Of a DNA stretch of 64,000 bases, positions 2,601 to 36,299 are shown piece by piece. Below the pieces are notes generated by a model, which had not been told where the DNA came from, ran no database searches, and saw only the letters and a list, made by a program, of their open reading frames with translations. Origin of the DNA: Methanomethylovorans sp. GTDB lineage: Archaea > Halobacteriota > Methanosarcinia > Methanosarcinales > Methanosarcinaceae. Each line of letters starts with the position of its first letter. Position 1 is the first letter of the stretch. The translations under genes and the position numbers were made by a program. The DNA lies in NCBI RefSeq assembly GCF_041447285.1, contig NZ_JBGMEB010000026.1, positions 1 to 64,000 on the forward strand. Direction: 5' to 3'.

Positions 2601-3398
2601 TTAATCCAAATAAATTTGAGCAACTTCCCACTCGGCTTCAAGTAAGTGTTTCACAAAGAAAACAAACTCTTTTCCATTGGACCAGATAGCTGCGAGCTCT
2701 TCTCTTGAACCTGCATCTTTCCTGAGATTTATCAACACCTCAGAGCTATCTACTAAAATAACTCCACCTTTTCTGAATTCTTCGTCTTTGAGAGTATACA
2801 ATCTAAGTTCTGCTGCTGGAATTTGTTTTGCTATATCCTGCAATTCCGCTGGCGAATAGACGATTATACGCACTTTAACACCTTCGCTGATCTTGCGATT
2901 TAATACCTCAGCAAGTTCCTGATGGTGCTTTTCTACCAGCGGGTACATATTTTCAAGATCCCTGAAACCTGGATGAGGGGTTTCTGCAATTATTTCGGAT
3001 CTTGCATTGCAAATAACCTGGATTATCCTGTCAGTTACATTTTTCAGGCCGTTTATAGTCCAGACAACCTCTTCCTGAATTTCATTATCCTCACTTGAGT
3101 ATACCTCTTCAAGTTTTTCAAGAGCTAATTCAGTTTCCTGCTCAAAATCCTTTTTGATCTTTTCAATGGCTTCCTGAGGGCAGATGCATTTGTATCGCAT
3201 GGGCTTTGTATGCTGCACTTCAATAAGACCACGTTCAGCAAGCTTTTTTAGGACTCCGTATACAGCAGGCCTTGGTATGCCTGAGAACATATGAAGGTCT
3301 GTGGCTGTGCCGCTCCCATACCTGTTCAATGCCACAAAGACCTTGGCCTCATACTCGGTAAGTCCTAAATTCTTAAGAGAATCAATAAGTGAAAACAT
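2601..3398 (-). CDS. TrmB-family transcriptional regulator
   Basis: N-terminal LGLTEYEAKVFVALNRYGSGTATDLHMFSGIPRPAVYGVLKKLAERGLIEV is the TrmB winged-HTH. A C-terminal sensor-like domain follows. Confidence 0.8.
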   Translation of the reverse strand: MFSLIDSLKNLGLTEYEAKVFVALNRYGSGTATDLHMFSGIPRPAVYGVLKKLAERGLIEVQHTKPMRYKCICPQEAIEKIKKDFEQETELALEKLEEVYSSEDNEIQEEVVWTINGLKNVTDRIIQVICNARSEIIAETPHPGFRDLENMYPLVEKHHQELAEVLNRKISEGVKVRIIVYSPAELQDIAKQIPAAELRLYTLKDEEFRKGGVILVDSSEVLINLRKDAGSREELAAIWSNGKEFVFFVKHLLEAEWEVAQIYLD

Positions 3399-3448: not shown

Positions 3449-4519
3449 CTATCCTTTTTTCTGTTTATTGTAGATGAAAAAACCACCTGCAGCAACGATC
3501 ACTATTAAAATGATCGCAAACAATCCAGTATAAGTTGACAATGACTCACCAAAAGACCTTGCAGGCAATGTTTCAGTCTTTATCTTAATAGTATCTGATA
3601 TCTGGCTATGCCCATCTTGATCCTCGTATTTGATCTCACTATTGATGGAATATGCCTTTGCCACTGCCATTTCATCAACTTTCAGCTTAAATAAAGCATC
3701 TGCTGTCTGCCCTGGCTCCAAGGTTCCTAAGAAAGCCTGATCGTCCGTAGTACTGAAAGGATCATCGGGGCTAATTCTGACTGTAGCGTCTTTTGCCGTC
3801 ATCTCTCCTGTGTTCTTATAGGTGACACGCAGCATCCCATCTGAATTTGCATATAGCGTACCTGTAGCATTCACCACCTCAAAATCAGCCTCATTATCTA
3901 CCTTTATGTTGATAGTCTGGTTCTGCTGACCCACAGCATACCACAGTCCCACTTCCATATTGGTGATACCCAGATCAGTTTCATCATCACCATTGATCTG
4001 AACATCCTGCTGATACCCATAATACAGTTGCAGGTTCAAGGGATAAGTGCCTGCGGGAGCATTCTTGGATATCTCTATGCTAAACTGCACAGGATCTTCA
4101 GTTTGCTGTCCGGAGGAAAGAGATCCAGCCTCTTGTGGTCCGGATTTGACTATTACGTATGGACTTGAAGAGTTGAGAATAGCTACAATACCAATAGCAG
4201 TAGTTCTCTGTGCTTCATAATTCATCTCTGTCATCTGCAACTTCTGTTCAAGTTCATCAAGGTCGTCTTTATCAGCTTCGTCCTCAAAGCCGCTGATAAC
4301 ACCTTTGTTCATCAGATTGAGGTCTATTGTTACTGTGTCCCCACGGGAATACTCATTATCCCCGATCAAAGTTGCAGTTACATTAGGTCCTCCGTAGACG
4401 GAATAGTAATTGTCATCAAAGTTAAAGAATTCAGGTAACTGTGCACATGCAGGTGCTGTAATGGAAATTACCAGAAATAAGAATGCTAATACATTAGTCA
4501 CATTTTTCAGGCTGTTCAT
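3449..4519 (-). CDS. COG1361-type cell-surface (S-layer domain-like) protein with signal peptide and C-terminal TM anchor
   Basis: It has a signal peptide and a beta-rich body with a conserved NAPAGTYPLNL motif shared with its neighbour. The C-terminal helix is GLFAIILIVIVAAGGFFIYNKQKKG. It overlaps the upstream paralog by 4 bp. Confidence 0.6.
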   Translation of the reverse strand: MNSLKNVTNVLAFLFLVISITAPACAQLPEFFNFDDNYYSVYGGPNVTATLIGDNEYSRGDTVTIDLNLMNKGVISGFEDEADKDDLDELEQKLQMTEMNYEAQRTTAIGIVAILNSSSPYVIVKSGPQEAGSLSSGQQTEDPVQFSIEISKNAPAGTYPLNLQLYYGYQQDVQINGDDETDLGITNMEVGLWYAVGQQNQTINIKVDNEADFEVVNATGTLYANSDGMLRVTYKNTGEMTAKDATVRISPDDPFSTTDDQAFLGTLEPGQTADALFKLKVDEMAVAKAYSINSEIKYEDQDGHSQISDTIKIKTETLPARSFGESLSTYTGLFAIILIVIVAAGGFFIYNKQKKG

Positions 4520-5628
4520 TCAATCCCTCTGTTCTTTTGGTTCATGCTCCTCAATATGTTCTTAGATATTATTACTATCAAAGTAATGATTATGCCGATG
4601 ATGGCAATGCCGGTGATATTCAATTTATCTTCAGTAGGTGTGACCGGGACATCCACTTTCATATTGCTTGAATATGCAATCTCACCGTCTGTATCGATGT
4701 ATTTGATCTCACTGTCCAATCCATATGTCTTCGCCACAGCTGTACGTTCTGAAGCGATCACAAATGATGCAGTTTTGCTTGAACCCGGTTCAATAGTGCC
4801 AAGGGGTTGTGTAGACCCACCACAAGAGAGAGGTTTCATTGCAACGATCCTTGCAGTAGCATCTGTTGCCGGAAGCTCCCCGGTGTTAGTATAGGTGACA
4901 TTTATGGTACTAGTGCTACCTGCTGAAAGCTGTCCCGACACTTCAGTAACTTCTAACCTGGGCTCAGGCTCTATAACTATCGGAATTGTTAAGGTTTTAT
5001 TTGCTGTCTGATAAAAGGTTTCATGATCCTTTGAAGGCATACCCTGAACAGCTGTGCTTCCCGCAGTCATTCGTATATCTTTTTGATATTCATATGCAAG
5101 AGGAAGAACCAGCATATAGACACCAGCAGGTGCATTTTCTGAGATTGTCAGAGTAAATACAAGAGGATCGGGCAATTGTCCCGGAAAAACTTCTTCCAAG
5201 GTCTGGCTGTTAGTGGTCGGGTCAACATCTATATATTCTGAATTGGTAACCAAGGTCGCTTTCACACCATAAGCAACAGTACGGAGAGATTCATAGTTCA
5301 GCTCTTTGATGGAAAGAGCCTGTTTAGTTTCAGAAGTACCGACACCTTGTGCACTCTTAGCCCCATAGAGCACTCCCCTGTTGGAAATAACGATCTTTAG
5401 ATCTCTTGTTTCCCCTCTTTTAACTTCAGCATCTCCAAGCACTGAAGCATAAAGGTCCGGTTCTCCGTAGCTTGTGTAAAAGTTTGTAGTCTGCTGATAT
5501 GTAGCTGGCAAGAACTCCTTTGCAGAAGCAGGACATACTCCCACAGCTGAAAGCATGCTAAGCATAATCACAACTACCAGAATGATGGAAAAGCACGCTG
5601 TAATTCGTTTATAATATCTATTGTTCAT
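4516..5628 (-). CDS. COG1361-type cell-surface protein, paralog of 3449-4519
   Basis: Same architecture as its neighbour, with the motif NAPAGVYMLVL and a C-terminal TM anchor. It overlaps the MMPL gene by 4 bp. Confidence 0.6.
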   Translation of the reverse strand: MNNRYYKRITACFSIILVVVIMLSMLSAVGVCPASAKEFLPATYQQTTNFYTSYGEPDLYASVLGDAEVKRGETRDLKIVISNRGVLYGAKSAQGVGTSETKQALSIKELNYESLRTVAYGVKATLVTNSEYIDVDPTTNSQTLEEVFPGQLPDPLVFTLTISENAPAGVYMLVLPLAYEYQKDIRMTAGSTAVQGMPSKDHETFYQTANKTLTIPIVIEPEPRLEVTEVSGQLSAGSTSTINVTYTNTGELPATDATARIVAMKPLSCGGSTQPLGTIEPGSSKTASFVIASERTAVAKTYGLDSEIKYIDTDGEIAYSSNMKVDVPVTPTEDKLNITGIAIIGIIITLIVIISKNILRSMNQKNRGIE

Positions 5629-7973
5629 ATGGTGCTAACCTCCGTTGCCTTGGCATGGTTAGTATTCATGGTTTTCATTTTCTTTTTCGAGATCCTTTGT
5701 TCCCTGTGCTTGTCCAATAAGACCAACACGGGAGGGAATACTACAAATGTAGCAAACAGTGCCAACGTAACATCAATTACCGTAATGAAGCCAAAATTGC
5801 TGGTCATACTAAAGGGAGAAGCGATCAATGCAGCAAAACCAAAAACGGTAGTAAGTCCGGAACTGATAATGGCTTTCCCCATCTTGAGACCTGCCTCATG
5901 CATAGCCTCATCAGGCGTGGCGCCTTTATCTTTCTCTTCGAAATATCTCTCCATCATAAGGATAGCATATTCGGAACCCACTCCAAGAATAAGTGCACCA
6001 AGAGTTGCTGTCATGGGAGTGTATTCGAGACCTGTATAATACATGATACCTCCGGACCATCCTACTACTATCAGCATTGTAATGACAGGAGTCAGAGCTT
6101 TAAGGTGATCTCTGTAAATTGCCATCAGTCCTATGAAGACCATGACTATACCAAGCATTGTCATCAACATACGCCCTGAAGTAAGCGCACCGATCACCTC
6201 AAAGAAAACTACAGAATTTCCGGTGATAGTAACAGTGGTGCCAGGAGGCGGAACAAACCATTTAATGTCTTCTTCGACGGTATCCGAAAGTTCAGATATA
6301 CCTTCAAGTCCAAGTTCCCCCATAGCGTTGCCGATGTTAAGGTTCAGCACCATGATATTCCCGCCATGGAGGTACCATTGTTTCTGGCTATCTGGTATCT
6401 GTGCATATATATGTTCTACTTCTTCGGCAGTATCCGGGATCTCACCGCGGTTCATTTCTTTTACAAGAGACACAATACTATTGGACCCATATATGTGAGA
6501 TCTGCCCTCAACTTCGTGCTGTGAGAACTCGTCAATCCATTTAAGCAGGTCAGGATTGGCATTGTCGTCTGTTTTAATTACAAGATTTAGCTGATCGGTA
6601 CCACCCAGTATGCTTCCAAGATGTTTGAGGTCCAATAAAGCAGGCATGTCCTGTGGGACAAAAGTCTGGACATCTGTCTGCAGGGGAACCATAGAATCCA
6701 CGTACATGCCACCAAGACAGGACAAGCTTGCAATAATTAGGATAATCCATGGATATTTTAATGTGAAAGAAGTCATCTTCCCGATCAATCGATCTAATAT
6801 ATCAGGTTGTGTTGTGTTGCTTGGATGATCATTCTTTTTATTGATACCTTTTTTCGAGTTCTTTCTATCCTCCAGGCGATGCAGAGTATAGATGACTGTG
6901 ACACCTACAAAGAGGGAAACAATAAAACACATGACTATTCCTATGAGCAGAAGTTTTCCAAAATCCTGTATCATGGGCACTGCAGATGTAAACAGAGAAA
7001 AGAAACCCAGAGCTGTGATGATCAGAGCTATAAGCACTGCAGGTCCGATGTGCTTAATAGTTTGCACCACTGCTTCAGCAGCATCTTCTCCTTTTGCAAG
7101 TTCTTCCTCTATGCGGTTATGGAACTGGATAGCATAATCGATCCCAAGCCCGATAAGTACCGGAAAAGCGGCCATTGATACCATTGTCATGGGTATGTTC
7201 ATGAAACCCATTGCACCGAAAGTTAATATGATACCCAGAAGTACAATTGGTAACGGAAGTAGTCTCCACCGAACATGCTTGAATACCATATAAAGTACTA
7301 CTAGCATCAGTATGGCTGATATCCCAAGCAACGGCCCCATGCTTGAGTTCATCTCGTAGTTAAGTGCAACATTAAAAGCAGGATCACCGGTTACTATCAC
7401 ATTGTAGTCCGGCGGAAACTTGGCAAACGCAACAGCTGACTCTGTCTGTTCCAATATCTCTTCCTGCATCTGGTCCGTGGTAGTTCCTTCTATTACAACA
7501 GACATGAAAGCGTGGGTGTCATCAGGCATAAGAGCAGAAGGCATGTATGAAGCCACTATACCCTTTATAGTTGCTTCATCATCGGGTATTTCTGCATTCC
7601 CGGTCATTTTGTAGTTAACTTCTTTTATAACGGTGGAAGGAGAAGTCACTTCAATTACACCTGGTATATTAGCAGCTGAAAGCTGGGCCCTGTCCAAGGC
7701 TTTGAGAAGTTCCGGATTTGTGATATCCTGACCCTCGACCATCACAACTATTGACTGGGTGCTGAAAAGATTAAGATAAAGATGGTCAAAATCCTGATAC
7801 AGCTTGGAGGTCTTTTCAACAAAAGTATCAGTCCCTGATTTCATTTCAATGAGCTGGGCTCCCTGCAGGGAGAGGACTATTAACAGCAGCGCAATCAGTC
7901 CGATAGCTACTGAGTTGTCCTCGATGAAGACTCCAAGTTTTTCAAATATGCCTTTTATAATTACACACCTCAA
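5625..7973 (-). CDS. MMPL/RND-superfamily exporter (COG1033-type)
   Basis: 782 aa with two 6-TM bundles, each preceded by a large extracytoplasmic loop. Glycine-rich TM segments are typical of MMPL/SSD transporters. Confidence 0.75.
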   Translation of the reverse strand: MRCVIIKGIFEKLGVFIEDNSVAIGLIALLLIVLSLQGAQLIEMKSGTDTFVEKTSKLYQDFDHLYLNLFSTQSIVVMVEGQDITNPELLKALDRAQLSAANIPGVIEVTSPSTVIKEVNYKMTGNAEIPDDEATIKGIVASYMPSALMPDDTHAFMSVVIEGTTTDQMQEEILEQTESAVAFAKFPPDYNVIVTGDPAFNVALNYEMNSSMGPLLGISAILMLVVLYMVFKHVRWRLLPLPIVLLGIILTFGAMGFMNIPMTMVSMAAFPVLIGLGIDYAIQFHNRIEEELAKGEDAAEAVVQTIKHIGPAVLIALIITALGFFSLFTSAVPMIQDFGKLLLIGIVMCFIVSLFVGVTVIYTLHRLEDRKNSKKGINKKNDHPSNTTQPDILDRLIGKMTSFTLKYPWIILIIASLSCLGGMYVDSMVPLQTDVQTFVPQDMPALLDLKHLGSILGGTDQLNLVIKTDDNANPDLLKWIDEFSQHEVEGRSHIYGSNSIVSLVKEMNRGEIPDTAEEVEHIYAQIPDSQKQWYLHGGNIMVLNLNIGNAMGELGLEGISELSDTVEEDIKWFVPPPGTTVTITGNSVVFFEVIGALTSGRMLMTMLGIVMVFIGLMAIYRDHLKALTPVITMLIVVGWSGGIMYYTGLEYTPMTATLGALILGVGSEYAILMMERYFEEKDKGATPDEAMHEAGLKMGKAIISSGLTTVFGFAALIASPFSMTSNFGFITVIDVTLALFATFVVFPPVLVLLDKHREQRISKKKMKTMNTNHAKATEVSTI

Positions 7974-8168: not shown

Positions 8169-10022
8169 TCATTCAAGCTTTTCGCCACATTGCATACAGA
8201 ATTTTTCTCCTTCTTCCGCATCTCTACCGCATTTTGGACATTTCTTCTTCCCTGCACCGATATTCGAGCGCTGTATAACACTATCCTGAATGGTAGTGGT
8301 GCTGGTAATGTTGTATTGAGTAGTGGCCGTGTCCACAAAGAGATTTACATCTGTTCTTTTTTGGATCTCTTCAAGCATCTTATGATAGAAACCTGTAAGT
8401 GCTTCTTCTTTCTGAGCCCAGGCTTTAAGTATCAGGCGAGATTTACGTTTCCCAACTACTTCCACATAGGCTGCATATTCCATACCTGAAACACCTTCAG
8501 CGAAGAACCTTGCAACACCTGTGAAAAGCTGCGGCGTAGAAGTCGTTTCCGGATTTAGCATGTACAGGTTCAAGTCCCTGAGCACTCTTGAAGAGATATC
8601 AAAAAGATTCTCTGCAGGAATATCGAGGTCAAGGCTTTCTTCTTCTGCCACAAGCATCTTGTTAACCTTTTGCCTCCAGGCATCTTCATGGATTTCCCGT
8701 CTTCTTAGCACAGGGCAGATAATGCTTACCATCTTGCTTACAATATCGCCTTTTCTTCTTTTCCTCAGGCTATAGTCATAATATGTAATGGAACCTGAGA
8801 TCGCACAATCACCGCATTCGCCTGTGGGACGTATCTCGAATGTCGCTGTTTTACTTTCACCTGGTTCCAGCATGGAGATGGTCTTTTCCTTCTCCTGCAT
8901 ATAGAATACATCAGGAACGAACAAATCCACTTTTATGTCACCTATCGGGTCTTTGGAAAGGTTCTCAACTTTTACCTTATACTGGATAGAGGCACCTGCA
9001 TATTGGAATGCTGATTTTACCACAATAGGAATTCCGTTCTTCCCGGTTACAGGAGGTGTATTAACAGATTCAGTTATCTTTTTCTGTGGCTTTTCAGTGG
9101 GCAGGGGTGGTGACATTACAGGAGTGGACTCAACAACTACTGGTGGAGCTTTGCTAACTTTATTTATAACAACTGGTTCCACTGTCTTTTTTTGCTTAGT
9201 GCCCTTTTTCTTACCTTTGAGAAGGAGTACTAAGAATAGCAGAAGGAACACCACCACAACAAGAATCATTAACAGGCCCAGGACACCATATATTGCATCA
9301 TCAGTCTGGGTAGAGTCACTATATCCCGTACCGGAAATGTCAGTGATCGTTGAAAGCGTGCGTGGATGATAGTATACCACCCCGGCATAAACATAGACGC
9401 TCTCTTCCAGACTCTGGTATCCTACTTTGGAGAGTCCTATAGTGTGGGTGCCTGCCTGCACATCATATATCCAAAAATAGTCAGAGCCGGTCGTACCCAT
9501 ATAGTAACCATCCAGATATACTTCCACTCCCGGAGGTGTGGTAGTTATGGCAATGGAACCAGTAGTGGAGGTGGTGGAAGTAGTAGATGTGGTAGAGGCA
9601 GTATCAGTAGTGTACGTTTCTTCTGAACTAACCTCTACATTAGAGATCAACACATAATTAATATAATAAGCGTCAGTGTACAGGCTGTCAATGTCAAAAT
9701 CAATACTGATCTTGTCATCATAGTATGAGAAATGCGTTCCGGGACTGTAAATCTGGTCAATGAGCACAACTGAGCCATAAGTAATCGAAAGTTCCACAGT
9801 ATTGCTGTAAGTGTCCACTGAGTATACATTCAAGTAATAGCCATTGTCCACTTCAATGAAACTGTATTCCATCAGAGGAATGCTATCGTCATAGTAAGTG
9901 TAGTCACTGAGGGGAATTATACCGTCAGCTGAACTTGCCAAGGGGATGGCAAATATAGACAGCAAGAGAAATAATGCATAGGTATAGGACTTGTGGATCA
10001 GCATATGCCACATCCTTTCCAA
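8169..10022 (-). CDS. single-pass membrane protein: secreted Tyr/Thr-rich N-terminal region with PEGA domain, TM helix, cytoplasmic domain, C-terminal zinc ribbon
   Basis: It has a signal peptide and an STT repeat tract. The PEGA-like segment is PPGVEVYLDGYYMGTTG...AGTHTIGLSKVGYQSLEESVYV. The TM helix is LLMILVVVVFLLLFLVLLL followed by KGKKKG. The C-terminus is CPKCGRDAEEGEKFCMQCGEKLE. Confidence 0.6.
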   Translation of the reverse strand: MERMWHMLIHKSYTYALFLLLSIFAIPLASSADGIIPLSDYTYYDDSIPLMEYSFIEVDNGYYLNVYSVDTYSNTVELSITYGSVVLIDQIYSPGTHFSYYDDKISIDFDIDSLYTDAYYINYVLISNVEVSSEETYTTDTASTTSTTSTTSTTGSIAITTTPPGVEVYLDGYYMGTTGSDYFWIYDVQAGTHTIGLSKVGYQSLEESVYVYAGVVYYHPRTLSTITDISGTGYSDSTQTDDAIYGVLGLLMILVVVVFLLLFLVLLLKGKKKGTKQKKTVEPVVINKVSKAPPVVVESTPVMSPPLPTEKPQKKITESVNTPPVTGKNGIPIVVKSAFQYAGASIQYKVKVENLSKDPIGDIKVDLFVPDVFYMQEKEKTISMLEPGESKTATFEIRPTGECGDCAISGSITYYDYSLRKRRKGDIVSKMVSIICPVLRRREIHEDAWRQKVNKMLVAEEESLDLDIPAENLFDISSRVLRDLNLYMLNPETTSTPQLFTGVARFFAEGVSGMEYAAYVEVVGKRKSRLILKAWAQKEEALTGFYHKMLEEIQKRTDVNLFVDTATTQYNITSTTTIQDSVIQRSNIGAGKKKCPKCGRDAEEGEKFCMQCGEKLE

Positions 10023-11309
10023 TCACTCAAGCTTTTTTCCGCACTGGCTGCAGAAACTCGCCTCTGCAGGAATTGTGGAGCCACACCCGGAACACCGCTT
10101 TACAGCAGAGCCACCTTTTGAACTTGCAGCACCCATCAAACCCGCATCCAGTTCATGTCTTCTGTAGGCATCAGCGCGCTCCCGGTCTTCGACATCCATC
10201 ATAAAGGAAACCTTATCTTCCTTTGCCATAACCTCACTCTGTTTTACTTTGGCAAGGGCTTCTAACTGCTCTGATGACAGTTTTGCGTACTCTCTGCCTT
10301 CACTTATGGTCTTGGCAACATCAGCACCGCCGGTACTAGTAACAGCACTGATGTAATCCATGTCCCTGTAATGCTCCCGGTCCTTCATATCCTGTTCTAC
10401 TTCAAGTTCCGCACGCATTCCTTTTGCCTTTGAGATATGCAGTTGATCTTTAAGTGCTATGGCATCTAAGGCTTCTTTCATATCTGTTTCATGGCGCAGC
10501 CTTTCAAGTTCCAACCGGGCTTCTTCTTCTTTCAGGCGTTCCTCACGGACAAATTCACTTCTTACGGCTGTTGGAGCTTGTGATGCCCGTACCTGTGCTA
10601 CATCTACCCGCCCAAAGCGCTCGTATTTTCCTTCTTCTCCAAGTGTCTTAAGCTCAGCAAGTTCTTCTTCAGTCTGGAACTGGTTAGTTGCCTCCATAAC
10701 CCTGCCGTATGATCCCAGGTCCCATTGTATTGTATACCTGAGCATTTCCAGCCCCCACATTTCCAACGTAGAACGCAGCTTCATTTCCAGTTCGTTCTCC
10801 AGACGCATCCGCAGTTCCCTATTACCATAGATGTTCTCTATGTTCTCGGTCCTGACCTCCGGCTCAAGTACAAGCGTGATGACCTCGCTTTCCAGGCGTT
10901 TGTAGACATCCTGCACACTTAAACTCCGCTCTCCATCTTTATCAGATGTCGTGTAGGCGAAGATCATCTGGAACAAACGTTTTATCTCCATGACCCTGAA
11001 CCTGAGCACGCCACTACACGATAAGCTCTGGTTGTCTGCTGTCCAGAGTTTTGAACATTTCCATTGCAGGTCTTTAGGTGATGTATCTATAAGGGCAACA
11101 TCCACATCCTTGCGGATAGTGCCGGGACTTAGCAAACCACCCACACTTAGTTTCCCACTTTCGATAACTTCCTCTATCTCCCCTTCCTTGATCAGCACAC
11201 CTTTTTCGTTTGGAGAGAGGATCACAGATTTTCTGAAAAACCCATCCACGTTCTTCTTTGGAACTACCCTAGCTAATTCATCTGGCTGTCTTTTCCATTT
11301 GAAGGCCAT
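10023..11309 (-). CDS. SPFH/band-7 (flotillin-like) domain protein with coiled-coil region and C-terminal zinc ribbon
   Basis: The N-terminal pattern resembles the SPFH core (SVILSPNEKGVLIKEGEI...SGVLRFRV). A long E/R/K-rich coiled coil follows. The C-terminus CSGCGSTIPAEASFCSQCGKKLE is near-identical in pattern to the tail of the adjacent gene. Confidence 0.5.
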   Translation of the reverse strand: MAFKWKRQPDELARVVPKKNVDGFFRKSVILSPNEKGVLIKEGEIEEVIESGKLSVGGLLSPGTIRKDVDVALIDTSPKDLQWKCSKLWTADNQSLSCSGVLRFRVMEIKRLFQMIFAYTTSDKDGERSLSVQDVYKRLESEVITLVLEPEVRTENIENIYGNRELRMRLENELEMKLRSTLEMWGLEMLRYTIQWDLGSYGRVMEATNQFQTEEELAELKTLGEEGKYERFGRVDVAQVRASQAPTAVRSEFVREERLKEEEARLELERLRHETDMKEALDAIALKDQLHISKAKGMRAELEVEQDMKDREHYRDMDYISAVTSTGGADVAKTISEGREYAKLSSEQLEALAKVKQSEVMAKEDKVSFMMDVEDRERADAYRRHELDAGLMGAASSKGGSAVKRCSGCGSTIPAEASFCSQCGKKLE

Positions 11310-11426
11310 TTGTGTTCCCCCACACTATTCTATAATTATTAATCGGTAAAGATTATATATATGGTTTTGCCAAAGTATTAAATGGTAAACATTTGTGGGA
11401 AATGACAACTTCCAAAGGGAGTTAAC

Positions 11427-11582
11427 ATGAACAGATCATATCCTGTGAGCGCGAGGGTTTCTGAGGATATCAACCAGTATCTTGAAAAACTGGTGAATTC
11501 CGGACAGGCTATCAATAAATCTGAGGCTGTAAAGCTGTGCATCAGATATGCCAAGCAGATGAAGATGGAGGAGGTCATATAA
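11427..11582 (+). CDS. small (51 aa) ribbon-helix-helix (CopG/Arc/MetJ-like) DNA-binding protein
   Basis: This ORF is not in the track. Its translation is MNRSYPVSARVSEDINQYLEKLVNSGQAINKSEAVKLCIRYAKQMKMEEVI. The strand-helix-helix pattern is present. Its stop abuts the GTG start of the next gene, which is preceded by a GGAGGAGG SD. Confidence 0.45.
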   Translation: MNRSYPVSARVSEDINQYLEKLVNSGQAINKSEAVKLCIRYAKQMKMEEVI

Positions 11583-12180: not shown

Positions 12181-13344
12181 TTGGCTGCATCAAGTTCCAT
12201 GGCGGCAGAGGCTCGGGGATACGCCAGAGTGGCAAAGGAGCTGGAAGACTCCGGAGAGCTGGAACGGGCACGTACTTTGTATCTCAAAGCTGCGAAGCTG
12301 TACAATGAAGCGTCTAAAACAACAGATGATGCTACAGACAGAAACATCCAGAGAGATCTGGCTGAACATCTGCTGGAAAGAGCACAGTCTATAAGACAGA
12401 CAGAAGTACAGCATTCTGGCAAAGAAAGAGGAAAAGGAAATGGTGATGAAAGTTCTCTCTCTAAAGAGGACCTTTTTCTCAAACAGATCCCGGATGTGGG
12501 CTTTGCTGATATAGGCGGCCTGGAGAACGTAAAGGAAGAAATCAGAAAGTCTATCATATATCCCTTCACTCATAAAGAGCTGTACAAGTTGTACGGGCAG
12601 AAGGCAGGAGAAGGCATATTACTATATGGCCCTCCAGGTTGTGGAAAGACCATGATGGCTAAGGCTGCTGCAAAAGAATGTGGTGCTGATTTCATAAGTG
12701 TCAAGACCAGCAGTATAGTAAGCAAATGGGTGGGAGCTTCAGAGAAGAATATAAAGCAGGTATTTGATACCGCCAGAGGCAGTGAAAGAGCTATAATATT
12801 TTTCGACGAGATAGATTCCATTGCAGTGCGGCGTAGTGAAAGTGAGGATTATGCAAAACGTGTGGTTAATGAGTTGCTGGCGCAGATGGATGGAGTGGAT
12901 ACTTCACATGACAATCTGCTTGTGCTTGCTGCGACAAACGAACCCTGGGCTATAGATCCGGCTTTGCGAAGGCCGGGACGCTTCAGTAAACTGGTATTCA
13001 TTCCCGAACCTGATATGGAAGCAAGGATGGCTATTTTCGGCATACAGCTTAAGAAGCGTCCTATTGCAGAGGATGTGAACGTGCAGGAACTTGCACGCGT
13101 CACAGGATCTTATTCAGGTGCGGATATCTCTGCCATCTGCAAAGAAGCTGCGGATATTCCTCTGGGTGAGGCATTAAGAGGAGGAAAACCACGCAAAATA
13201 AAGATGCAGGATTTCCTGCAGGCGATAAAGCAGAGGAAACCTTCCATTCTCAGCTGGTACATTGAGGCAAAGGATCAGATCATGGACACCGGAGAAACAG
13301 ATGCTTTTGAGGATATTCTTAAAAGAGAACTGGATGCAAGGTGA
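12181..13344 (+). CDS. Vps4/CdvC-like AAA+ ATPase with N-terminal MIT domain
   Basis: The N-terminus AEARGYARVAKELEDSGELERARTLYLKAAKLYNEA...LAEHLLERAQSIRQ is a three-helix MIT-like bundle. The AAA core has GPPGCGKT. The motifs SSIVSKWVGASEK, NEPWAIDPALRRPGRF and DFLQAIKQRKPSI closely parallel meiotic-clade Vps4 motifs. Confidence 0.75.
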   Translation: MAASSSMAAEARGYARVAKELEDSGELERARTLYLKAAKLYNEASKTTDDATDRNIQRDLAEHLLERAQSIRQTEVQHSGKERGKGNGDESSLSKEDLFLKQIPDVGFADIGGLENVKEEIRKSIIYPFTHKELYKLYGQKAGEGILLYGPPGCGKTMMAKAAAKECGADFISVKTSSIVSKWVGASEKNIKQVFDTARGSERAIIFFDEIDSIAVRRSESEDYAKRVVNELLAQMDGVDTSHDNLLVLAATNEPWAIDPALRRPGRFSKLVFIPEPDMEARMAIFGIQLKKRPIAEDVNVQELARVTGSYSGADISAICKEAADIPLGEALRGGKPRKIKMQDFLQAIKQRKPSILSWYIEAKDQIMDTGETDAFEDILKRELDAR

Positions 13345-13395: not shown

Positions 13396-14706
13396 ATGAC
13401 AGCAGTTGAAGAGCCAGCGGAGCTACAGGCAAGGAACAGGAAAACTGTTCAGGAACATCTGGAGCAAGCATATGCTGCTGTAGACGGATTGATCAGAAAA
13501 AGTTATAGCAGGCATGATATGGAAACAACATCCCTTCTAAGGGACCTGAGGTCTAATATCAATAACCTGCTTCCGGAGATCAGATCTTCCGGCCTTGATA
13601 CATTCCACAGCAGGAAAGGTAACTTAGACGATTTTTATGCTTCAGAGAAACGCTTCATTGAGAGTTCAGAAAGATTCTACCAAACTGTAACTTCCTCTTC
13701 TGAGGACATAGATGTTTTTAAATTGCAGCAGCTGCTCACAGCAATACAGAGAAATTTCAGGGAGATAATACCTGTTTCTGATGACGTGGTAAAGGATTTC
13801 AAGATTAGGGCAGGCATCAGTGTTGTTAGCGAGCCGGTCAAAGAGACCTCTGCTACTGTAAAAGCTTTCGGGATCTGTAGAGAAGTTCCAACAAATGCAG
13901 AAATATCTTCAGGCCCCTCTACTATGGAGATATTCGGCATCCACAGGGAAACACCAATAGATACAAGAACTTCTCCTACTGGTCAGAGCATGGGCATACC
14001 TATGGCCAGCAGTTCATATAATGTGACTATAGAGCCGGATGGCAGAGAACTTCCACCTCATCTGCTTGCCAGCCTATATAGTTATTTTAACTTACTGGAA
14101 CAGAAGTATTCAACCAACCATCCTGAAATATCAGCAAATGATGTGTACATTGGGGACAAGAGATGGGAATTTGAAAAAGGGGAGAGATACATAAGAGGAT
14201 ACATATACGATAGCCTTTTCAGTAAAACTATTACTTTTTATACTGTATTCAAGCCTTTTGAGAGCCTTAAACAAATAACTGAGTTCATGCAGAAAGAAGC
14301 GGACAGGGTACCATCCGGGCAATATCTCAGCCTCTGTGTAGTGGGTGTTGAGTGGCCAGAAGACATTATAAAATGGGCAGCATCTTTCTTTCATCTGCGA
14401 ATGTCGCTTTTCATTTATGATCTTGCAACAGGTGTTTTTTGTTTTAACAAAGAGCTGAAACAATCAGAAAGATTTGCTTTCTGGCACAATATGGATAAGG
14501 AAACTTCCAAATTGTATGACCAGCTTCTTGAAATACTTGAACAATATGGAGCTATAAGCATTGTTGAAGCTTCAAAGGAACTGGGAATGGAACAGAAAAG
14601 CACTGCAGAGTATTTTAAGAAGCTTTTAAAGGCAGGAGCGCTTGTGGATGTAGGATTTGGAGAACACAAATATGCTCTTTCCATATCAGCATCAAAAAAG
14701 GATTGA
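13396..14706 (+). CDS. hypothetical protein with C-terminal winged-helix-like domain, fourth gene of the ESCRT-like operon
   Basis: The 436-aa body is of unknown function. The C-terminus EQYGAISIVEASKELGMEQKSTAEYFKKLLKAGALVDVG resembles a wH DNA/protein-binding module. Confidence 0.4.
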   Translation: MTAVEEPAELQARNRKTVQEHLEQAYAAVDGLIRKSYSRHDMETTSLLRDLRSNINNLLPEIRSSGLDTFHSRKGNLDDFYASEKRFIESSERFYQTVTSSSEDIDVFKLQQLLTAIQRNFREIIPVSDDVVKDFKIRAGISVVSEPVKETSATVKAFGICREVPTNAEISSGPSTMEIFGIHRETPIDTRTSPTGQSMGIPMASSSYNVTIEPDGRELPPHLLASLYSYFNLLEQKYSTNHPEISANDVYIGDKRWEFEKGERYIRGYIYDSLFSKTITFYTVFKPFESLKQITEFMQKEADRVPSGQYLSLCVVGVEWPEDIIKWAASFFHLRMSLFIYDLATGVFCFNKELKQSERFAFWHNMDKETSKLYDQLLEILEQYGAISIVEASKELGMEQKSTAEYFKKLLKAGALVDVGFGEHKYALSISASKKD

Positions 14707-28817: not shown

Positions 28818-30488
28818 ATGACCACCAGTTTGATCGAAGTTCAGTTTTCAAAACTTAGCCATTTCTGGATGGATTCTGGATTAATTGGCTTATACAAAAT
28901 AGCAAAAGAAGAACATCCATCGGAAATGGGAGTAGAAATGCGTCTAAGTGACGATGGTGTTGTTTTCAAAGGAACTGAAGCTAATTTGACCTTATTGTTC
29001 AATAAAGCTTATGAGTCACTTTTAGATCAGTATTACAGTAAATCAACTGAAAAACAGAGACAGGAAAATGCAGGTTTCTATTACGATTCCAAAGAAGACA
29101 AATTTGTACGATTCCCTAAGGTAAAAGCTATGGGTATTGCAGGATTGATTTTTAACAAAGCACCAAGAATGACAGTAGAACAAGTTAAATATGAAACTGT
29201 TGAAGTAAATGAAGTTGGTAAAAAAATTACAAAAAAGGTTCTACCAAAGGAATATTCTCATTTACAGAATAGATTGGACATTTTTCTTAATGAAACTGGC
29301 TTAAAAATATCTAGTAATAATCTTCTAATTGGTGGACCAAATGCAATTCAACCTCAAGTTGAAATTAAAGTAAAGAAAGGTAAAATTAAGGGAAAGTGCT
29401 TCATTTGCGGTGAAGCATCCCATTCATTAACAGAAATTGGCGGTACTGTTTATCCAATGATTACTGGATCATCTGGAGTATTATCTTTCAATTCAAATGG
29501 TGGAAAACCTGAAAAGGTTTGTTGGAAATGTGATTTCCTGGGAAAATTTGTTCCAGCAAATGGCTTTTATGTATACAACAATGAGAGTTACAATATCTAT
29601 TTCCCATACTCTTCAAGCTTGGTAAAAATGAGTGAAGTTTATGAGGATTTTCAGGCTTTAAAAATTGATGATCCAAATCTCCTCAAAAACTTTGAGAACA
29701 GGCTGGGCGGTTTCTTTCAGCGTCCATTTGAACAATTATTCACATTTCTCTATTCTTTATACTTGACAGTTTTATCCAAAAAAACAACTGATGGAGATCA
29801 CCATGAACTCGATTTTGAGAAACTCTTTGATGTTGTCATTTCAAAAGCTCCCTTAGAGTTCTATACTATCAATACTACTTCTTTGGGAGATACCCAAATG
29901 GGAAAAATGATTTGGCCTTTTAACGATTCAGTATATCTTTTTAGAATATTTGACAAGTTAGAGAGAAATAAAATCGATATAAAAGAAGTGATGGCAAATC
30001 TTATTGACTACGATCAAACTAAAAATGAAAATAAAACCATTATAAGAAACGCAGTTTGTGAGCGTATTCTGAAGAAAGGCAGTACAATTGAGTTAATTGA
30101 ACAGCATGTATTTCGCATTAATAAATCAAAAAAGCAAAACATAAAGCCAATACACGATTTTGTGATTCAATACGAGAAAATAGTAAAGGAGGGTAACGAC
30201 AAAGTGGATCAAGCAATTATTGATACAGCAGTTAGTTTGGGAAAGACAATTGGATTTAGTGTTGCTTCTGCCGGTCGCAAAGGTAAAGGTGATCTTTTCA
30301 GATTGCGAAAAACAAGGAAACCCGAAGATTTTTTAAATGAGATTAATCGCATTCAAATGAAATATGGGGCCTTGGTTACATCTGATTTGTATGGAAATGG
30401 AGAAGAATTTGAGAAAAATTTCTTAGAGTTCAAACAGTTTTGCATGATTGCTGCACTTAACACATTTAACGCAAAAAATCAAAACTAA
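28818..30488 (+). CDS. cas8b: CRISPR-associated large subunit Cas8b (Csh1-like), type I-B
   Basis: 556 aa and first in the cas operon upstream of cas7/cas5. It has an internal Cys cluster CFICGE...CWKCDF. The subtype call follows from the downstream Csh2-like Cas7 and the HD-helicase Cas3. Confidence 0.6.
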   Translation: MTTSLIEVQFSKLSHFWMDSGLIGLYKIAKEEHPSEMGVEMRLSDDGVVFKGTEANLTLLFNKAYESLLDQYYSKSTEKQRQENAGFYYDSKEDKFVRFPKVKAMGIAGLIFNKAPRMTVEQVKYETVEVNEVGKKITKKVLPKEYSHLQNRLDIFLNETGLKISSNNLLIGGPNAIQPQVEIKVKKGKIKGKCFICGEASHSLTEIGGTVYPMITGSSGVLSFNSNGGKPEKVCWKCDFLGKFVPANGFYVYNNESYNIYFPYSSSLVKMSEVYEDFQALKIDDPNLLKNFENRLGGFFQRPFEQLFTFLYSLYLTVLSKKTTDGDHHELDFEKLFDVVISKAPLEFYTINTTSLGDTQMGKMIWPFNDSVYLFRIFDKLERNKIDIKEVMANLIDYDQTKNENKTIIRNAVCERILKKGSTIELIEQHVFRINKSKKQNIKPIHDFVIQYEKIVKEGNDKVDQAIIDTAVSLGKTIGFSVASAGRKGKGDLFRLRKTRKPEDFLNEINRIQMKYGALVTSDLYGNGEEFEKNFLEFKQFCMIAALNTFNAKNQN

Positions 30489-30516
30489 TCTAATAAACAT
30501 AATGGAGGAACAATAA

Positions 30517-31404
30517 ATGAAATCAGCTAAAGCATTAACTTTGACATACTTAACACCAGTATCATTTGCTTCTCTGAATGGATCAGACAAAGAAGCAGAC
30601 AATATGTCTAATATTAAAAAAATATCAGTAGGTGTCGAACAATATCCTTACGTTTCATCTCAGGCCATTCGAAGAGCATTGAGAAATCAGCTTGAGGTAC
30701 TAGGCAGAGAACTCTCGGAAGGAGTGGCTGCTTCTCAAGCAAAGGGAGCTGCGACTACAAAGCAAGAACCGGAAAAATATATTGATGATGATCTATTTGG
30801 ATACATGGGAACAGAAAGTGGAGATGGAAACACCAAAGGTGGGTCTACTAAAAGAACTTCTGTAGTAAGGGTTTCGCCTTTGATTGCATTGAATCCATAT
30901 CAAGGAGATCTGGATTTTGGGACTAACTACATGGGTGTAAAAGCTGGCGGTGATCCCAATATCTTTGAAACTGAGATCCATTCTGGCCTTTATAGAGGAA
31001 CCATATTAATCGAGCTTGATAGAGTGGGAAAAGGTGATGGATTCAAAAATGAGATTTCTAACACTGAAAAGGCAGCAAGAGTTAAAGATCTACTTAAAGC
31101 AATTAAAAATCTATGGGCTTCCGGTAGACAAACACGATTCCTTGCAGACATTGCTCCAAAGTTTGTAGTTGCAGCAATGCTTAGCACAAAAAACCCGATT
31201 TTTCTCGAAAGTGTGAAACTTGAAGAAAACGGAATTAATGTTCCGATAATAGAAGAAACTCTCAAGGATTATAAACCTGAAACAATTTCTTCAGTAATTG
31301 GAATGAGAAAAGGATTCTTCACTACTGAAATTGAAAATGCGAAACCTTTGGGAGAAGCATTTGAAGAGATGGAAAAATGGATAGATGAATATTATAAGCA
31401 GTGA
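30517..31404 (+). CDS. cas7: Cas7 (Csh2-like) backbone subunit
   Basis: LTLTYLTPVSFASLNGSD...YVSSQAIRRALRNQL is the Cas7 RAMP glycine-rich/thumb signature. Confidence 0.8.
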   Translation: MKSAKALTLTYLTPVSFASLNGSDKEADNMSNIKKISVGVEQYPYVSSQAIRRALRNQLEVLGRELSEGVAASQAKGAATTKQEPEKYIDDDLFGYMGTESGDGNTKGGSTKRTSVVRVSPLIALNPYQGDLDFGTNYMGVKAGGDPNIFETEIHSGLYRGTILIELDRVGKGDGFKNEISNTEKAARVKDLLKAIKNLWASGRQTRFLADIAPKFVVAAMLSTKNPIFLESVKLEENGINVPIIEETLKDYKPETISSVIGMRKGFFTTEIENAKPLGEAFEEMEKWIDEYYKQ

Positions 31405-32150
31405 TAACTATGTATATCTTTTCGATAGAAGGGGTATCAATAACTGCTTCTTTTCGATCTCCAGAAACTCATACATTTCATAAAACACTTCCACTGCCCC
31501 CAAAAACAACAATAATTGGGATGATGGGGGCTGCTCTGGGATTGAGTTTAGAAGAGGTACATAAATTCGTTACAGACCAAGGTTTCCTAGTAGGAGTTTA
31601 TGGTTTTAATAAAGGATTAATGCGTGACCTTTGGAATTATAGGAAACTCACGGGTAAAGAAAAGAAATACACAGCTGATGATATTAAAAATCGTAGGCAA
31701 TATAGTATCCTAATCAGAGAGTATTTGTTCGAAAATGAATTCACATTCTATTTTGGATCAAATGAACTGGAAAAATTAGAGCAATTAAGATCTGCATTTA
31801 TATCACCAACATATCCACTGACAGTAGGAAATAGTGACGACTTGTTTAAAACATGTAAAATTGGAGATATAATTAAAGAGGAAAAATGCAAACTCAGTAA
31901 GTTTGAGTATACTGTTCTACCTGGAGATTTATCAGAACTTTATAATAATGACATTGATTTTAGCCAGATCCCAGTAGTTCAAACCGTAAACACACCTCAA
32001 GTATTTCTCTTGCCTACAAAATTCATTTTTGAAGGAGACGAAAGAAGAGTAAGTGAACGTCAGAAGTTTACCTTCATAAGCACTCCTGTTAAATTAAAAA
32101 AAGAGATGGATGGATACACTGTAAACGGAAAAAATGTTGTGTTGCTATGA
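31401..32150 (+). CDS. cas5: Cas5 (Cas5h-type) subunit
   Basis: SITASFRSPETHTFHKTLPLPPKTTIIGMMGAALGL is the Cas5 N-terminal signature. It overlaps cas7 by 4 bp. Confidence 0.8.
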   Translation: MITMYIFSIEGVSITASFRSPETHTFHKTLPLPPKTTIIGMMGAALGLSLEEVHKFVTDQGFLVGVYGFNKGLMRDLWNYRKLTGKEKKYTADDIKNRRQYSILIREYLFENEFTFYFGSNELEKLEQLRSAFISPTYPLTVGNSDDLFKTCKIGDIIKEEKCKLSKFEYTVLPGDLSELYNNDIDFSQIPVVQTVNTPQVFLLPTKFIFEGDERRVSERQKFTFISTPVKLKKEMDGYTVNGKNVVLL

Positions 32151-35990: not shown

Positions 35991-35997
35991 GGTTTGA

Positions 35998-36291
<294 letters not shown>

Positions 36292-36299
36292 GGCAGCAT

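Follow-up and report, generated by a model that had tools for sequence, protein, structure and literature searches.

In the 64-kb stretch of Methanomethylovorans DNA analysed here (the window), two neighbouring genes, which we call A and B, face a divergent operon that encodes a 51-aa protein, a Snf7-like protein, a Vps4-like ATPase and a coiled-coil/winged-helix (wHTH) protein (Table 1). The question raised by this arrangement is whether A and B belong to the ESCRT genes that they adjoin and, if so, in what capacity. With a probability of about 0.7, we read both as components of a euryarchaeal ESCRT system for membrane remodelling, A being its SPFH scaffold and B its adaptin-appendage-like membrane protein. 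The A-B/ESCRT locus is real and coherent, but it has already been described by comparative genomics as the Meth_adaptin ESCRT system (Makarova et al., 2024, mBio 15:e00335-24, PMC10936438), with Methanosalsum zhilinae (WP_013898571-WP_013898578) as the exemplar. Both ORFs lie on the minus strand, with the positions and terminal sequences given in an earlier sequence-only reading of this DNA.

Table 1. Coordinates of genes and features at the locus (positions in the window)
Feature	Position	Strand	Detail
Gene A	10023..11309	-	soluble SPFH, long coiled-coil and C-terminal Zn-ribbon protein, 428 aa
SPFH/Band 7 domain of A, aa 30-195	10725..11222	-	Pfam Band_7
Long helical/coiled-coil region of A, aa 200-394	10128..10712	-	DSSP on AF2 model
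C-terminal Zn-ribbon of A	10026..10094	-	CSGCGSTIPAEASFCSQCGKKLE; generic PF13240 type, QRSNIG motif absent before ribbon
Gene B	8169..10022	-	type-I membrane protein; maximal ORF 617 aa, likely start ATG 10004 (611 aa)
S/T-rich linker before PEGA of B	9555-9608	-	
PEGA (Ig-like) domain, extracellular part of B	9372..9560	-	PF08308; aa 155-217 of 617-aa ORF
Single transmembrane helix of B	9219..9296	-	residues 243-268 of 617-aa ORF; hydropathy peak 3.74
Lys-rich stop-transfer stretch after B helix	9186-9218	-	KGKKKGTKQKK
Adaptin-appendage-like cytoplasmic module of B	8355..9026	-	Ig-like beta-sandwich and alpha/beta platform
Ig-like beta-sandwich of B	about 8721-9026	-	
Alpha/beta platform (TBP-like) of B	about 8355-8708	-	
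Portable C-terminal tail module of B	8172..8324	-	~50 aa; kept across B family
Motif part of B tail	8256-8291	-	...IQDSVIQRSNIG; then short linker and Zn-ribbon
Zn-ribbon of B	8172-8240	-	CPKCGRDAEEGEKFCMQCGEKLE
Shared divergent intergenic region, 117 bp	11310..11426	.	alignment of 12 loci, several genera
Conserved core of intergenic region, 40 nt	11349-11388		minus-strand reading TACCATTTAATACTTTGGCAAAACCATATATATAATCTTT
Small conserved gene, 51 aa, first in ESCRT operon	11427..11582	+	beside Snf7 in 27/30 loci with A
Snf7/ESCRT-III-like protein, 189 aa	11583..12152	+	Snf7 Pfam match, orthologues
Vps4-like ATPase	12181..13344	+	AAA 151 bits; AAA_lid_3
Coiled-coil protein with C-terminal winged-helix domain, 436 aa, last operon gene	13396..14706	+	weak HTH_24, aa 377-414

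Domain architecture of proteins A and B

Protein A corresponds to arCOG15283 (‘SPFH family protein, ESCRT system component’), and the SPFH component of M. zhilinae (P0065) is its direct homologue at 50% identity. A Pfam search places Band_7 (PF01145) at residues 30-195 with 33.8 bits, above the curated cut-off of 23.6, and the SPFH alpha/beta fold is present. In the AF2 model, DSSP assigns a single 125-residue helix at aa 200-324, and the helical region aligns with the coiled-coil wall of the HflK/C, flotillin, prohibitin and erlin cages; the earlier description of A as an SPFH/band-7-like protein with a long coiled coil is thereby borne out. Although A has the same fold as the prohibitin, HflK/C and flotillin cages, it differs from the SPFH cages (HflK/C, prohibitin, flotillin, erlin, stomatin, QmcA), which have an N-terminal transmembrane segment or hairpin and use their C-termini as a cap, in that it is anchorless and ends in a Zn-ribbon, and its oligomerisation is putative. 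A Kyte-Doolittle scan (19-residue, threshold 1.4) detected no transmembrane or hydrophobic segment in A; an N-terminal transmembrane or hairpin anchor is usual in the SPFH family but not universal. The claim that both proteins are membrane-associated therefore stands for B, which has one strong transmembrane segment, whereas for A it is presumed rather than observed.

Protein B corresponds to arCOG15284 (‘Adaptin appendage domain, ESCRT system component’) and is ordered as a signal peptide, an ectodomain with PEGA, a transmembrane segment, a Pro-rich linker, an adaptin-appendage-like domain, a QRSNIG motif and a Zn-ribbon. The maximal ORF opens with TTG; 611-aa homologues match the ATG at 10004, which is preceded by GGAAAGG, so that A and B abut at 10022/10023, as first described, for the maximal ORF but are separated by 18 nt when the likely start is used. 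The proposed signal-peptide, PEGA and single-pass architecture agrees with the hydropathy scan, which finds an N-terminal hydrophobic signal-like segment and a single strong transmembrane segment, and with the Pfam search, in which PEGA (PF08308) scores 41.3 bits (cut-off 20.8) at an extracytoplasmic location between the two; all three profiles suggested for checking (Band_7, PEGA and PF13240) score above cut-off.

The cytoplasmic part of B is more than a tail, comprising ~340 residues with a two-domain fold, an Ig-like domain and a TBP-like platform, accompanied by the Zn-ribbon; the adaptin-appendage fold of B, like the missing anchor of A, was overlooked in the sequence-only reading. In the clathrin-adaptor and COPI ears (AP-2 alpha, beta2, AP-4 beta, gamma-COP) the appendage ends a HEAT-repeat trunk, whereas B, which crosses the membrane once, has it as its cytoplasmic part, at a sequence identity of 7-11%; B also carries a Zn-ribbon tail and an invariant Cys triad in the appendage module (PTGECGDC at 8805-8828 and CP within 8706-8720), both missing in adaptins. 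The ectodomains of B paralogues are very variable, and B belongs to a receptor family in which ectodomains are interchangeable.

Conservation of the divergent ESCRT locus

The Snf7-like protein of the window aligns with Pfam Snf7 over its full length at E = 0.098, below the cut-off; 15 of 17 orthologues match the model (best E = 5.6e-5), arCOG00454 (CdvB/Snf7) includes the gene that holds the matching place in the M. zhilinae locus, and a PDB sequence profile search with the Snf7-like protein found nothing. Its gene lies directly upstream of that of the Vps4-like ATPase, to which MIT (E = 0.0011) and Vps4_C (E = 0.01) align below their Pfam cut-offs and NCBIfam CdvC aligns end to end (1-365) with 244 bits, under the equivalog cut-off of 650. 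Given that this ATPase is 57-75% identical to those of Methanolobus, Methanococcoides and other related loci with the same gene order, we infer that it belongs to the Meth_adaptin clade. The coiled-coil/wHTH gene evolves fast, with homologues in 30 loci at ~30% identity outside the genus.

The synteny comparison that the sequence-only reading had called for finds the divergent order kept in Methanomethylovorans, Methanolobus, Methanococcoides, MAGs of other Methanosarcinaceae and Methanoperedens. A lies directly upstream of the B orthologue in 27 of the 30 loci whose B orthologues have enough flank and, among the 30 loci that contain A with a flank of 3.5 kb or more, is accompanied by Snf7 in 27, by the 51-aa gene in 27 and by Vps4 in 25. 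Were the adjacency to ESCRT genes incidental, A and B would form an ordinary envelope-protein operon (SPFH plus surface protein), and the same-strand genes downstream, for an MMPL transporter, two CARDB surface proteins and TrmB, are indeed envelope-related, as B paralogues are indeed found away from ESCRT genes. However, conservation of the MMPL and CARDB genes stops at Methanomethylovorans, whereas the divergent order reaches Methanoperedens; in Methanococcoides vulcani everything from mid-Vps4 to mid-B, including Snf7, the small gene and A, is missing together, as if lost by one deletion; the intergenic block is conserved; and an independent published contextual analysis agrees with the ESCRT link (PMC10936438). 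Synteny thus largely refutes an incidental adjacency, which we consider highly improbable. The B paralogues (below about 57% identity) lie mostly elsewhere, away from A and from ESCRT genes, with A beside 6 of 22, and one locus (L040) has an SPFH/B-like array with Snf7 and Vps4 undetected within 17 kb, so that the SPFH/appendage pair may also function independently of ESCRT.

The divergent intergenic region is 117 bp long, as first noted, provided that the 11427-11582 ORF is a gene; its product has a mean column identity of 82% over 15 genomes. In the 12 aligned loci, from several genera, 25 positions of the 40-nt core are invariant between spacers that are otherwise unalignable, and the window and the two relatives nearest to it depart from the others in the palindrome adjoining the core. 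We read the core as a putative BRE/TATA-like promoter element with an adjacent operator-like repeat. The 51-aa protein looks ribbon-helix-helix-like by eye only, neither Pfam nor PDB sequence searches supporting a fold, and may regulate the divergent promoters. Together, the synteny, the conserved block and the published Meth_adaptin system uphold the proposal of a single, probably co-regulated membrane-remodelling locus.

Zinc-ribbon tails and a portable module

Both C-terminal ribbons, putatively zinc-binding, match Zn_Ribbon_1 (PF13240; cut-off 25), that of A with 25.4 bits and that of B with 27.1 bits, and share the spacing C-x2-C-x10-C-x2-C. In the window a terminal CxxC..CxxC tail occurs in the A and B ORFs only. 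The tails had been called near-identical, which is not the case: they share 12 of 26 amino acids and 41 of 81 nucleotides (BLASTP, 44% over 32 aa), mostly residues of the PF13240 scaffold, and only the final ten residues (FCxQCGxKLE) agree at 8 of 10. It is possible, if somewhat unlikely, that the shared ending has no function in common, generic ribbons having been carried independently and their likeness being family consensus only, each serving as a small stable cap or as a lipid- or nucleic-acid-binding knob of a kind common on prokaryotic membrane-associated proteins. Besides the scaffold residues, this alternative is favoured by unrelated bacterial ribbons that are up to 50-68% identical to the B ribbon, by the 26,515 cluster representatives (many with 5-19 tandem ribbons) that the ribbon part of the profile matches, by the separate conserved signature of each family and by the lack of within-genome co-variation between A and B tails (mean identity 0.447 versus 0.438, permutation p = 0.12, 32 genomes); as sequences, the two tails are no more alike than generic PF13240 ribbons. 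Against it, the ribbon is almost always kept at the extreme C-terminus (84 of 85 A homologues and 118 of 120 B homologues) and terminal ribbons cluster in system genes: 2,959 ORFs of at least 80 aa in 65 loci include 128 such ribbons, of which 103 belong to the A and B families and the other 25 fall mostly in adjacent genes within those clusters. The pairing of an SPFH-ribbon protein with a ribbon-bearing membrane protein also recurs in Firmicutes and in a second SPFH lineage, a distant family with three Zn-ribbons beside arrays of B-like genes.

The suggestion of a common recruitment module does find support, but for a longer module than the ribbon. This B-type tail (“IGTQVKDSVVQRSNIG” plus Zn-ribbon, the last ~50 residues) recurs on unrelated proteins in related loci, but A is without it in this genome. 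In another genome it is carried by a HEAT/Adaptin_N-like protein encoded within the ESCRT operon; multi-TM proteins of these neighbourhoods have it too, as do DUF2341 membrane proteins, among them a type-I protein with no cytoplasmic part beyond the tail. It also ends database proteins without an appendage domain. The motif stretch of B has low pLDDT (model residues 247-273) and so looks like a linker or linear motif. The portability of this tail among system proteins is the less-explored point: the QRSNIG-type tail, the 51-aa first gene and the promoter block go unmentioned in the main text of Makarova et al., 2024 (PMC10936438).

A more speculative and distinctly unlikely reading takes the tail (‘h-IGD-x-IGTQVKDSVVQRSNIG’, short linker, Zn-ribbon) as a portable sorting or recruitment tag by which the carriers observed, namely single-pass receptors (with PEGA, CARDB, PQQ, DUF2341 or LamG ectodomains), multi-TM proteins and the HEAT/adaptin-N-like soluble protein, would be captured by the SPFH/adaptin-appendage/ESCRT-III machinery; the disordered motif could be bound by the appendage platform or by clustered SPFH C-termini.

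Related systems and a proposed working

The window has the Meth_adaptin families, namely Vps4 (arCOG01307), ESCRT-III (arCOG00454), SPFH (arCOG15283), appendage (arCOG15284) and coiled-coil/wHTH, with the SPFH gene divergent from the ESCRT-III/Vps4 operon as in M. zhilinae, and A, encoded beside ESCRT genes, has the same make-up as the SPFH-coiled-coil-Zn-ribbon protein that the published account lists among the components (PMC10936438). It differs in that its appendage-Zn-ribbon protein has a PEGA ectodomain and is encoded directly downstream of the SPFH gene, and in that M. zhilinae has ProX and a second (GOLD-TM-appendage) gene: neither lies between the Vps4 and wHTH genes of the window, and BLASTP found no second ORF like the cytoplasmic part of B, nor any B paralogue, in the 64 kb. 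Because Methanolobus loci carry different extra genes, the second appendage protein and ProX appear to be variable accessory features.

A parallel to the Bacillus subtilis PspA-YdjGHI (SamGHI) module was already drawn by Makarova et al., 2024 (PMC10936438). By published descriptions YdjI/SamI is, like A, soluble and anchorless with a C-terminal Zn finger, and is encoded with Zn-ribbon membrane proteins and an ESCRT-III-superfamily protein; in B. subtilis experiments it needs the membrane proteins for its membrane location and is required for PspA foci, a precedent for such a protein recruiting an ESCRT-III-superfamily partner (PMC8581546; bioRxiv 10.64898/2026.02.06.704340). That module differs in having bacterial PspA instead of Snf7 and in being without Vps4 and an adaptin-appendage domain; YdjG combines N-terminal ribbons with an NTF2-like domain, and YdjH has a TPM domain. 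The locus resembles PspA-YdjGHI in outline but is not a member.

The likeness to YdjI speaks for a rival reading, a module for envelope-stress sensing and repair rather than a sorting or vesicle machine, in which the B ectodomain would sense perturbation, A would be a brake or scaffold on B, the 51-aa protein would set both operons and the Snf7-like polymer would patch the membrane. The conserved small gene at the head of the ESCRT operon, next to the promoter block, fits such a module, as does the stable housekeeping position that 17 loci occupy beside S6e and aIF5B, a hint of a core role in the cell. Yet the polymer is Snf7-type with a Vps4 partner rather than PspA-type, the scan of proteins yielded no TPM (YdjH-like) domain, a DNA-binding fold for the 51-aa protein is putative, and adaptor/cargo logic better fits the appendage fold, the variable B ectodomains and the HEAT and DUF2341 proteins that bear the tail; we regard the stress module as rather doubtful.

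Under our preferred reading, A and B would be the membrane-proximal half of a Meth_adaptin-type euryarchaeal ESCRT system. B would turn its variable extracellular Ig-like (PEGA) domain toward the cell envelope and, through a long flexible linker, hold a cytoplasmic adaptin-appendage-like hub with its ‘QRSNIG + Zn-ribbon’ tail. Since A has no anchor of its own, we infer that B or its paralogues bring it to the inner membrane face, as YdjG/H do YdjI. There the 125-residue helix would mediate oligomerisation of A, and the resulting ring or cage would mark out a patch of membrane, which the Snf7-like polymer would deform or seal and from which the Vps4-like ATPase would recycle that polymer; the output may be vesicle or cargo sorting or else membrane repair. 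The divergent operon would also supply the small putative regulator and a coiled-coil/winged-helix adaptor. The Zn-ribbon tails would be assembly modules, the B-type tail probably tethering other system proteins to one shared partner. The C-termini of SPFH cages come together at the apex, at a distance from the membrane, which makes contact of the A ribbon with a membrane partner harder to picture.

Euryarchaeal ESCRT systems have so far been predictions only, and our literature search found no experimental work on the Meth_adaptin system in any archaeon. The A-B/ESCRT finding itself repeats published comparative genomics; the window adds a clean, compact six-gene example with one shared promoter region and, beyond that, an anchorless SPFH protein like YdjI, receptors with interchangeable ectodomains and a conserved tail among several components. 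The Meth_adaptin type has been likened to the ancestral archaeal ESCRT system, and forerunners of eukaryotic coat-adaptor domains have been proposed within it. If the B tail is a recruitment signal, archaeal ESCRT cargo selection would become directly testable, and the tail would be a prokaryotic cargo-selection signal, a functional analogue of eukaryotic sorting motifs, that links separate adaptin-trunk-like and appendage-like proteins as they may have stood before their fusion in eukaryotic adaptors.

The locus as a Meth_adaptin ESCRT system

The gene set of this locus is that of Meth_adaptin, a euryarchaeal ESCRT system type described by Makarova et al. 2024 (PMC10936438). In the Methanosalsum zhilinae example of that study, Vps4 and ESCRT-III are joined by a coiled-coil/wHTH protein, by arCOG15283, which combines SPFH, coiled coil and Zn-ribbon, and by adaptin-appendage proteins, among them the Zn-ribbon-bearing arCOG15284 (PMC10936438); its SPFH protein is homologous to that encoded by gene A (50% identity). 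The sequence-only reading had proposed one membrane-remodelling locus joining SPFH and ESCRT genes, which was right but already published: the locus is genuine and conserved, the outline of that reading holds, and the kind of system it belongs to has been known since 2024. Our literature search found no experimental work on an archaeal system of this type. A parallel has also been drawn to the PspA-YdjGHI system of B. subtilis (PMC10936438), in which YdjI is an SPFH protein without an anchor and with a C-terminal Zn finger, its membrane localisation requires the membrane proteins YdjG (with two N-terminal ribbons) and YdjH, and PspA foci depend on YdjI (PMC8581546; PMC11237479; bioRxiv 10.64898/2026.02.06.704340).

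The ORF coordinates, minus-strand orientation and protein ends first read for A and B proved exact, and the Band_7, PEGA and zinc-ribbon models all matched above cut-off. Gene A scores 33.8 bits against Pfam Band_7 (cut-off 23.6; residues 30-195) and 25.4 bits against Zn_Ribbon_1 (cut-off 25); its product has no hydrophobic segment anywhere, that is, no anchor, and a PDB sequence search with it gave no significant match. In the product of gene B, a signal-like N-terminus leads through a linker rich in S/T to a PEGA domain that scores 41.3 bits (cut-off 20.8). One strong transmembrane (TM) helix comes next, bordered by a stretch rich in Lys; after it come a linker rich in Pro, some 300 further residues of the cytoplasmic part and a Zn_Ribbon_1 scoring 27.1 bits. 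The two genes had been thought to abut end to start at 10022/10023; 611-aa homologues match an ATG at 10004, with a GGAAAGG motif ahead of it, and with this likely start of B the A-B gap is therefore about 18 nt. What had been called the cytoplasmic tail of B does end in a ribbon, but the cytoplasmic part is actually an adaptin-appendage-like hub ahead of that ribbon. Conservation in the B family is confined to the cytoplasmic half, and the ectodomains differ (PEGA, CARDB, PQQ propeller, CarboxypepD_reg, DUF2341, LamG, PA14). Beyond these architectures and folds, which are established here, the appendage module holds, in its cytoplasmic Ig-like subdomain, an invariant Cys triad that may form an extra metal site.

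The divergent ESCRT operon begins with a 51-aa gene of 82% column identity, for whose product neither Pfam nor PDB sequence search supports a fold; it looks ribbon-helix-helix-like by eye, a label given on inspection only because the PDB search found nothing significant. Among Snf7 orthologues, 15 of 17 match Pfam Snf7 (best 5.6e-5), and PDB sequence searches with the window's Snf7-like and 436-aa proteins returned no significant match. The 436-aa coiled-coil/wHTH gene evolves far faster than its neighbours, with ~30% identity to Methanolobus orthologues versus 67-80% for A, the cytoplasmic part of B, Snf7 and Vps4; in several MAGs its paralogues adjoin B-like genes instead of Vps4. An anti-phage defence role was considered and rejected, the PADLOC matches being generic AAA only, for Vps4. 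Relatives' ESCRT operons carry extra genes absent from the window, namely a HEAT/Adaptin_N-like protein that ends in the tail seen on B, a two-TM protein of ~580 aa that has a duplicated motif plus a ribbon, and a 423-aa protein with weak Ig-like/TRAPPC13_C matches.

Features of the window and of related loci (L0nn, loci in other genomes, with their own coordinates)
Feature	Position	Strand	Remarks
TrmB regulator	2601-3398	-	downstream of B
Two paralogous CARDB/NPCBM_assoc surface proteins	3449-5628	-	downstream of B; C-terminal TM
MMPL/RND-type transporter	5625-7973	-	downstream of B
Gene B, maximal ORF	8169-10022	-	
Cys triad of B	8805-8828 and 8706-8720		PTGECGDC ... CP
Gene A	10023-11309	-	428 aa
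Conserved 40-nt block	11349-11388		in 117-bp spacer
51-aa gene	11427-11582	+	first in ESCRT operon, across the spacer; under usual ORF-listing threshold
Snf7-like gene		+	second in operon; Pfam Snf7 E = 0.098
Vps4/CdvC-like AAA+ ATPase		+	third in operon; MIT-like N-terminus
436-aa coiled-coil protein	13396-14706	+	C-terminal winged helix
ORF block, presumably cas genes	28818-36902	+	5' of CRISPR array
CRISPR array	37016-43147	+	84 identical 37-nt repeats; Rfam CRISPR-DR7
Extra operon genes of relatives	L032 1738-2625; L011 4137-5882, 2781-4052	-	absent from window
Tail-bearing gene arrays	L040 3919-14365; L059 12554-15909; L043; L030		up to five consecutive genes ending in QRSNIG + Zn-ribbon
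Degenerate locus, Methanococcoides vulcani SLH 33	L056 8411-10579		

Synteny, the shared spacer and gene loss

Scanning 185,579 species genomes with a profile of the B cytoplasmic part gave 65 loci. Those labelled below phylum or class all belong to Methanosarcinales, Methanoperedens or ANME-2, the rest being labelled only Methanobacteriota, Halobacteriota/Halobacteria, Euryarchaeota or uncultured archaeon. The window belongs to a member of Methanosarcinales; the nearest named relatives of its locus are Methanomethylovorans MAGs (89-96% protein identity), then Methanolobus (~67%). The expected synteny with the Snf7/Vps4 genes is present in relatives: A lies directly upstream of the B orthologue in 27 of 30 cases with enough flank, and of the 30 loci that have A with 3.5 kb of flank or more, 27 hold the 51-aa gene, 27 Snf7 and 25 Vps4. 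B paralogues of lower identity, of which a genome has as many as four, are mostly found at other sites that lack A and the ESCRT-operon genes. S6e and aIF5B, on the other side of the locus, are conserved neighbours in 17 loci. Downstream of B, the block from the TrmB regulator to the transporter is conserved within Methanomethylovorans only, and on this restriction the MMPL and CARDB genes were rejected as system members. Elsewhere in the window, the strong AT skew and absence of long ORFs over the CRISPR interval are due to that large array.

The spacer that separates A from the 51-aa gene contains a 40-nt block in which 25 positions are invariant in the 12 loci that were aligned, ranging from Methanomethylovorans to Methanoperedens; outside the block, the spacers of these loci cannot be aligned. 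The block consists of GGAAAAC-n2-TATATATAA and an adjacent short palindrome, TTGTATACAA in most genera and AAATG-n5-CATTT in the window. It reads as a BRE/TATA element by a short palindrome and is probably a shared bidirectional promoter plus operator. In M. vulcani the C-terminal third of Vps4 adjoins the C-terminal 190 residues of B, and Snf7, the 51-aa gene and A were not detected there; this joint loss is as expected from a single deletion across the divergent promoter.

Generic ribbons and a specific B-type tail

The tails of A and B had been called near-identical. Their ribbons do have identical spacing (C-x2-C-x10-C-x2-C), but the tails share only 12 of 26 residues and 41 of 81 nucleotides (44% over 32 aa by BLASTP), and the common positions are essentially the PF13240 scaffold. 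Ribbons of unrelated bacterial proteins reach 50-68% identity to that of B, and the ribbon half of the tail profile matches 26,515 cluster representatives in a library of 1.8 billion proteins. Recent tail duplication was rejected on the low nucleotide identity. Concerted evolution or co-variation was likewise rejected, A-B ribbon identity across 32 genomes being 0.447 within genomes versus 0.438 between them (permutation p = 0.12). Each family keeps its own signature (ST.P.EASFC.QCG in A, RE.E..EKFC.ECG in B), and the resemblance, judged on these comparisons, is generic. The ribbon's position is strongly kept, at the extreme C-terminus in 84 of 85 A and 118 of 120 B homologues. A and B are the only ORFs in the window with a terminal CxxC..CxxC tail; among 2,959 ORFs of at least 80 aa in the 65 loci, 128 have C-terminal ribbons, 103 of them in the A or B family and the other 25 mostly in genes neighbouring A/B within the same clusters.

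The conserved end of B exceeds the ribbon. It spans ~50 residues, with the consensus h-IGD-x-IGTQVKDSVVQRSNIG, then 3-6 residues, then the ribbon; its QRSNIG-type motif sits in a low-confidence stretch of the structure model and is presumably disordered. We did not find this module described in the literature. Database search with the tail alignment yielded only short fragments and generic ribbons, and the best 150 matches of the profile search were dominated by proteins with 5-19 tandem Zn-ribbons, at least ~20 of the 150 being full-module matches. Carriers otherwise unrelated to B include the ~580-aa two-TM protein immediately 3' of Vps4 in Methanolobus, where the motif is duplicated; a HEAT-repeat protein within the ESCRT operon of another genome that scores 49 bits against Pfam Adaptin_N (cut-off 37); some DUF2341 type-I membrane proteins, of which the module is the whole cytoplasmic part; and, from a protein library search, multi-TM and small soluble proteins. 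In some loci, 3-5 tail-bearing genes form an array beside a second, distant SPFH family of ~630-715 aa, whose members have a pair of Zn-ribbons at the N-terminus and a single one at the C-terminus, the latter preceded by a low-complexity Gly-rich stretch; neither Snf7 nor Vps4 was detected in the flanks fetched around these arrays. In Methanoperedens, a protein encoded just 5' of a B-like gene has 25% identity to the C-terminal half of A, lacks a Band_7 match and carries an RRSNIG-like motif followed by an A-type ribbon. Viral carriage of the tail, as in an ESCRT-hijack scenario, was rejected, with no match in viral contigs.

The idea of a recruitment module common to A and B is upheld in altered form, because the B-type tail recurs on otherwise unrelated proteins and A of the window has a plain ribbon only. 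Such a module is supported as a tail common to system components and possible cargo, not as one specific to A and B.

A candidate mechanism

We propose that B and its paralogues would bring A to the inner face of the membrane, where A may assemble into a ring or cage marking a membrane patch; the Snf7-like protein would polymerise there and Vps4 would recycle the polymer, while the 51-aa protein may regulate both divergent promoters. As judged from sequence, the output could be either vesicle/cargo sorting, as published, or stress sensing with membrane repair, for which YdjGHI is the precedent. Geometry poses a difficulty: the SPFH cages known so far bring their C-termini together at an apex remote from the membrane. 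The ribbons of A would therefore cluster at that apex, although the long linkers of B could conceivably reach them. The tails themselves would tether components to a common partner, and of the leads from this locus only this tail-tag hypothesis holds real promise.
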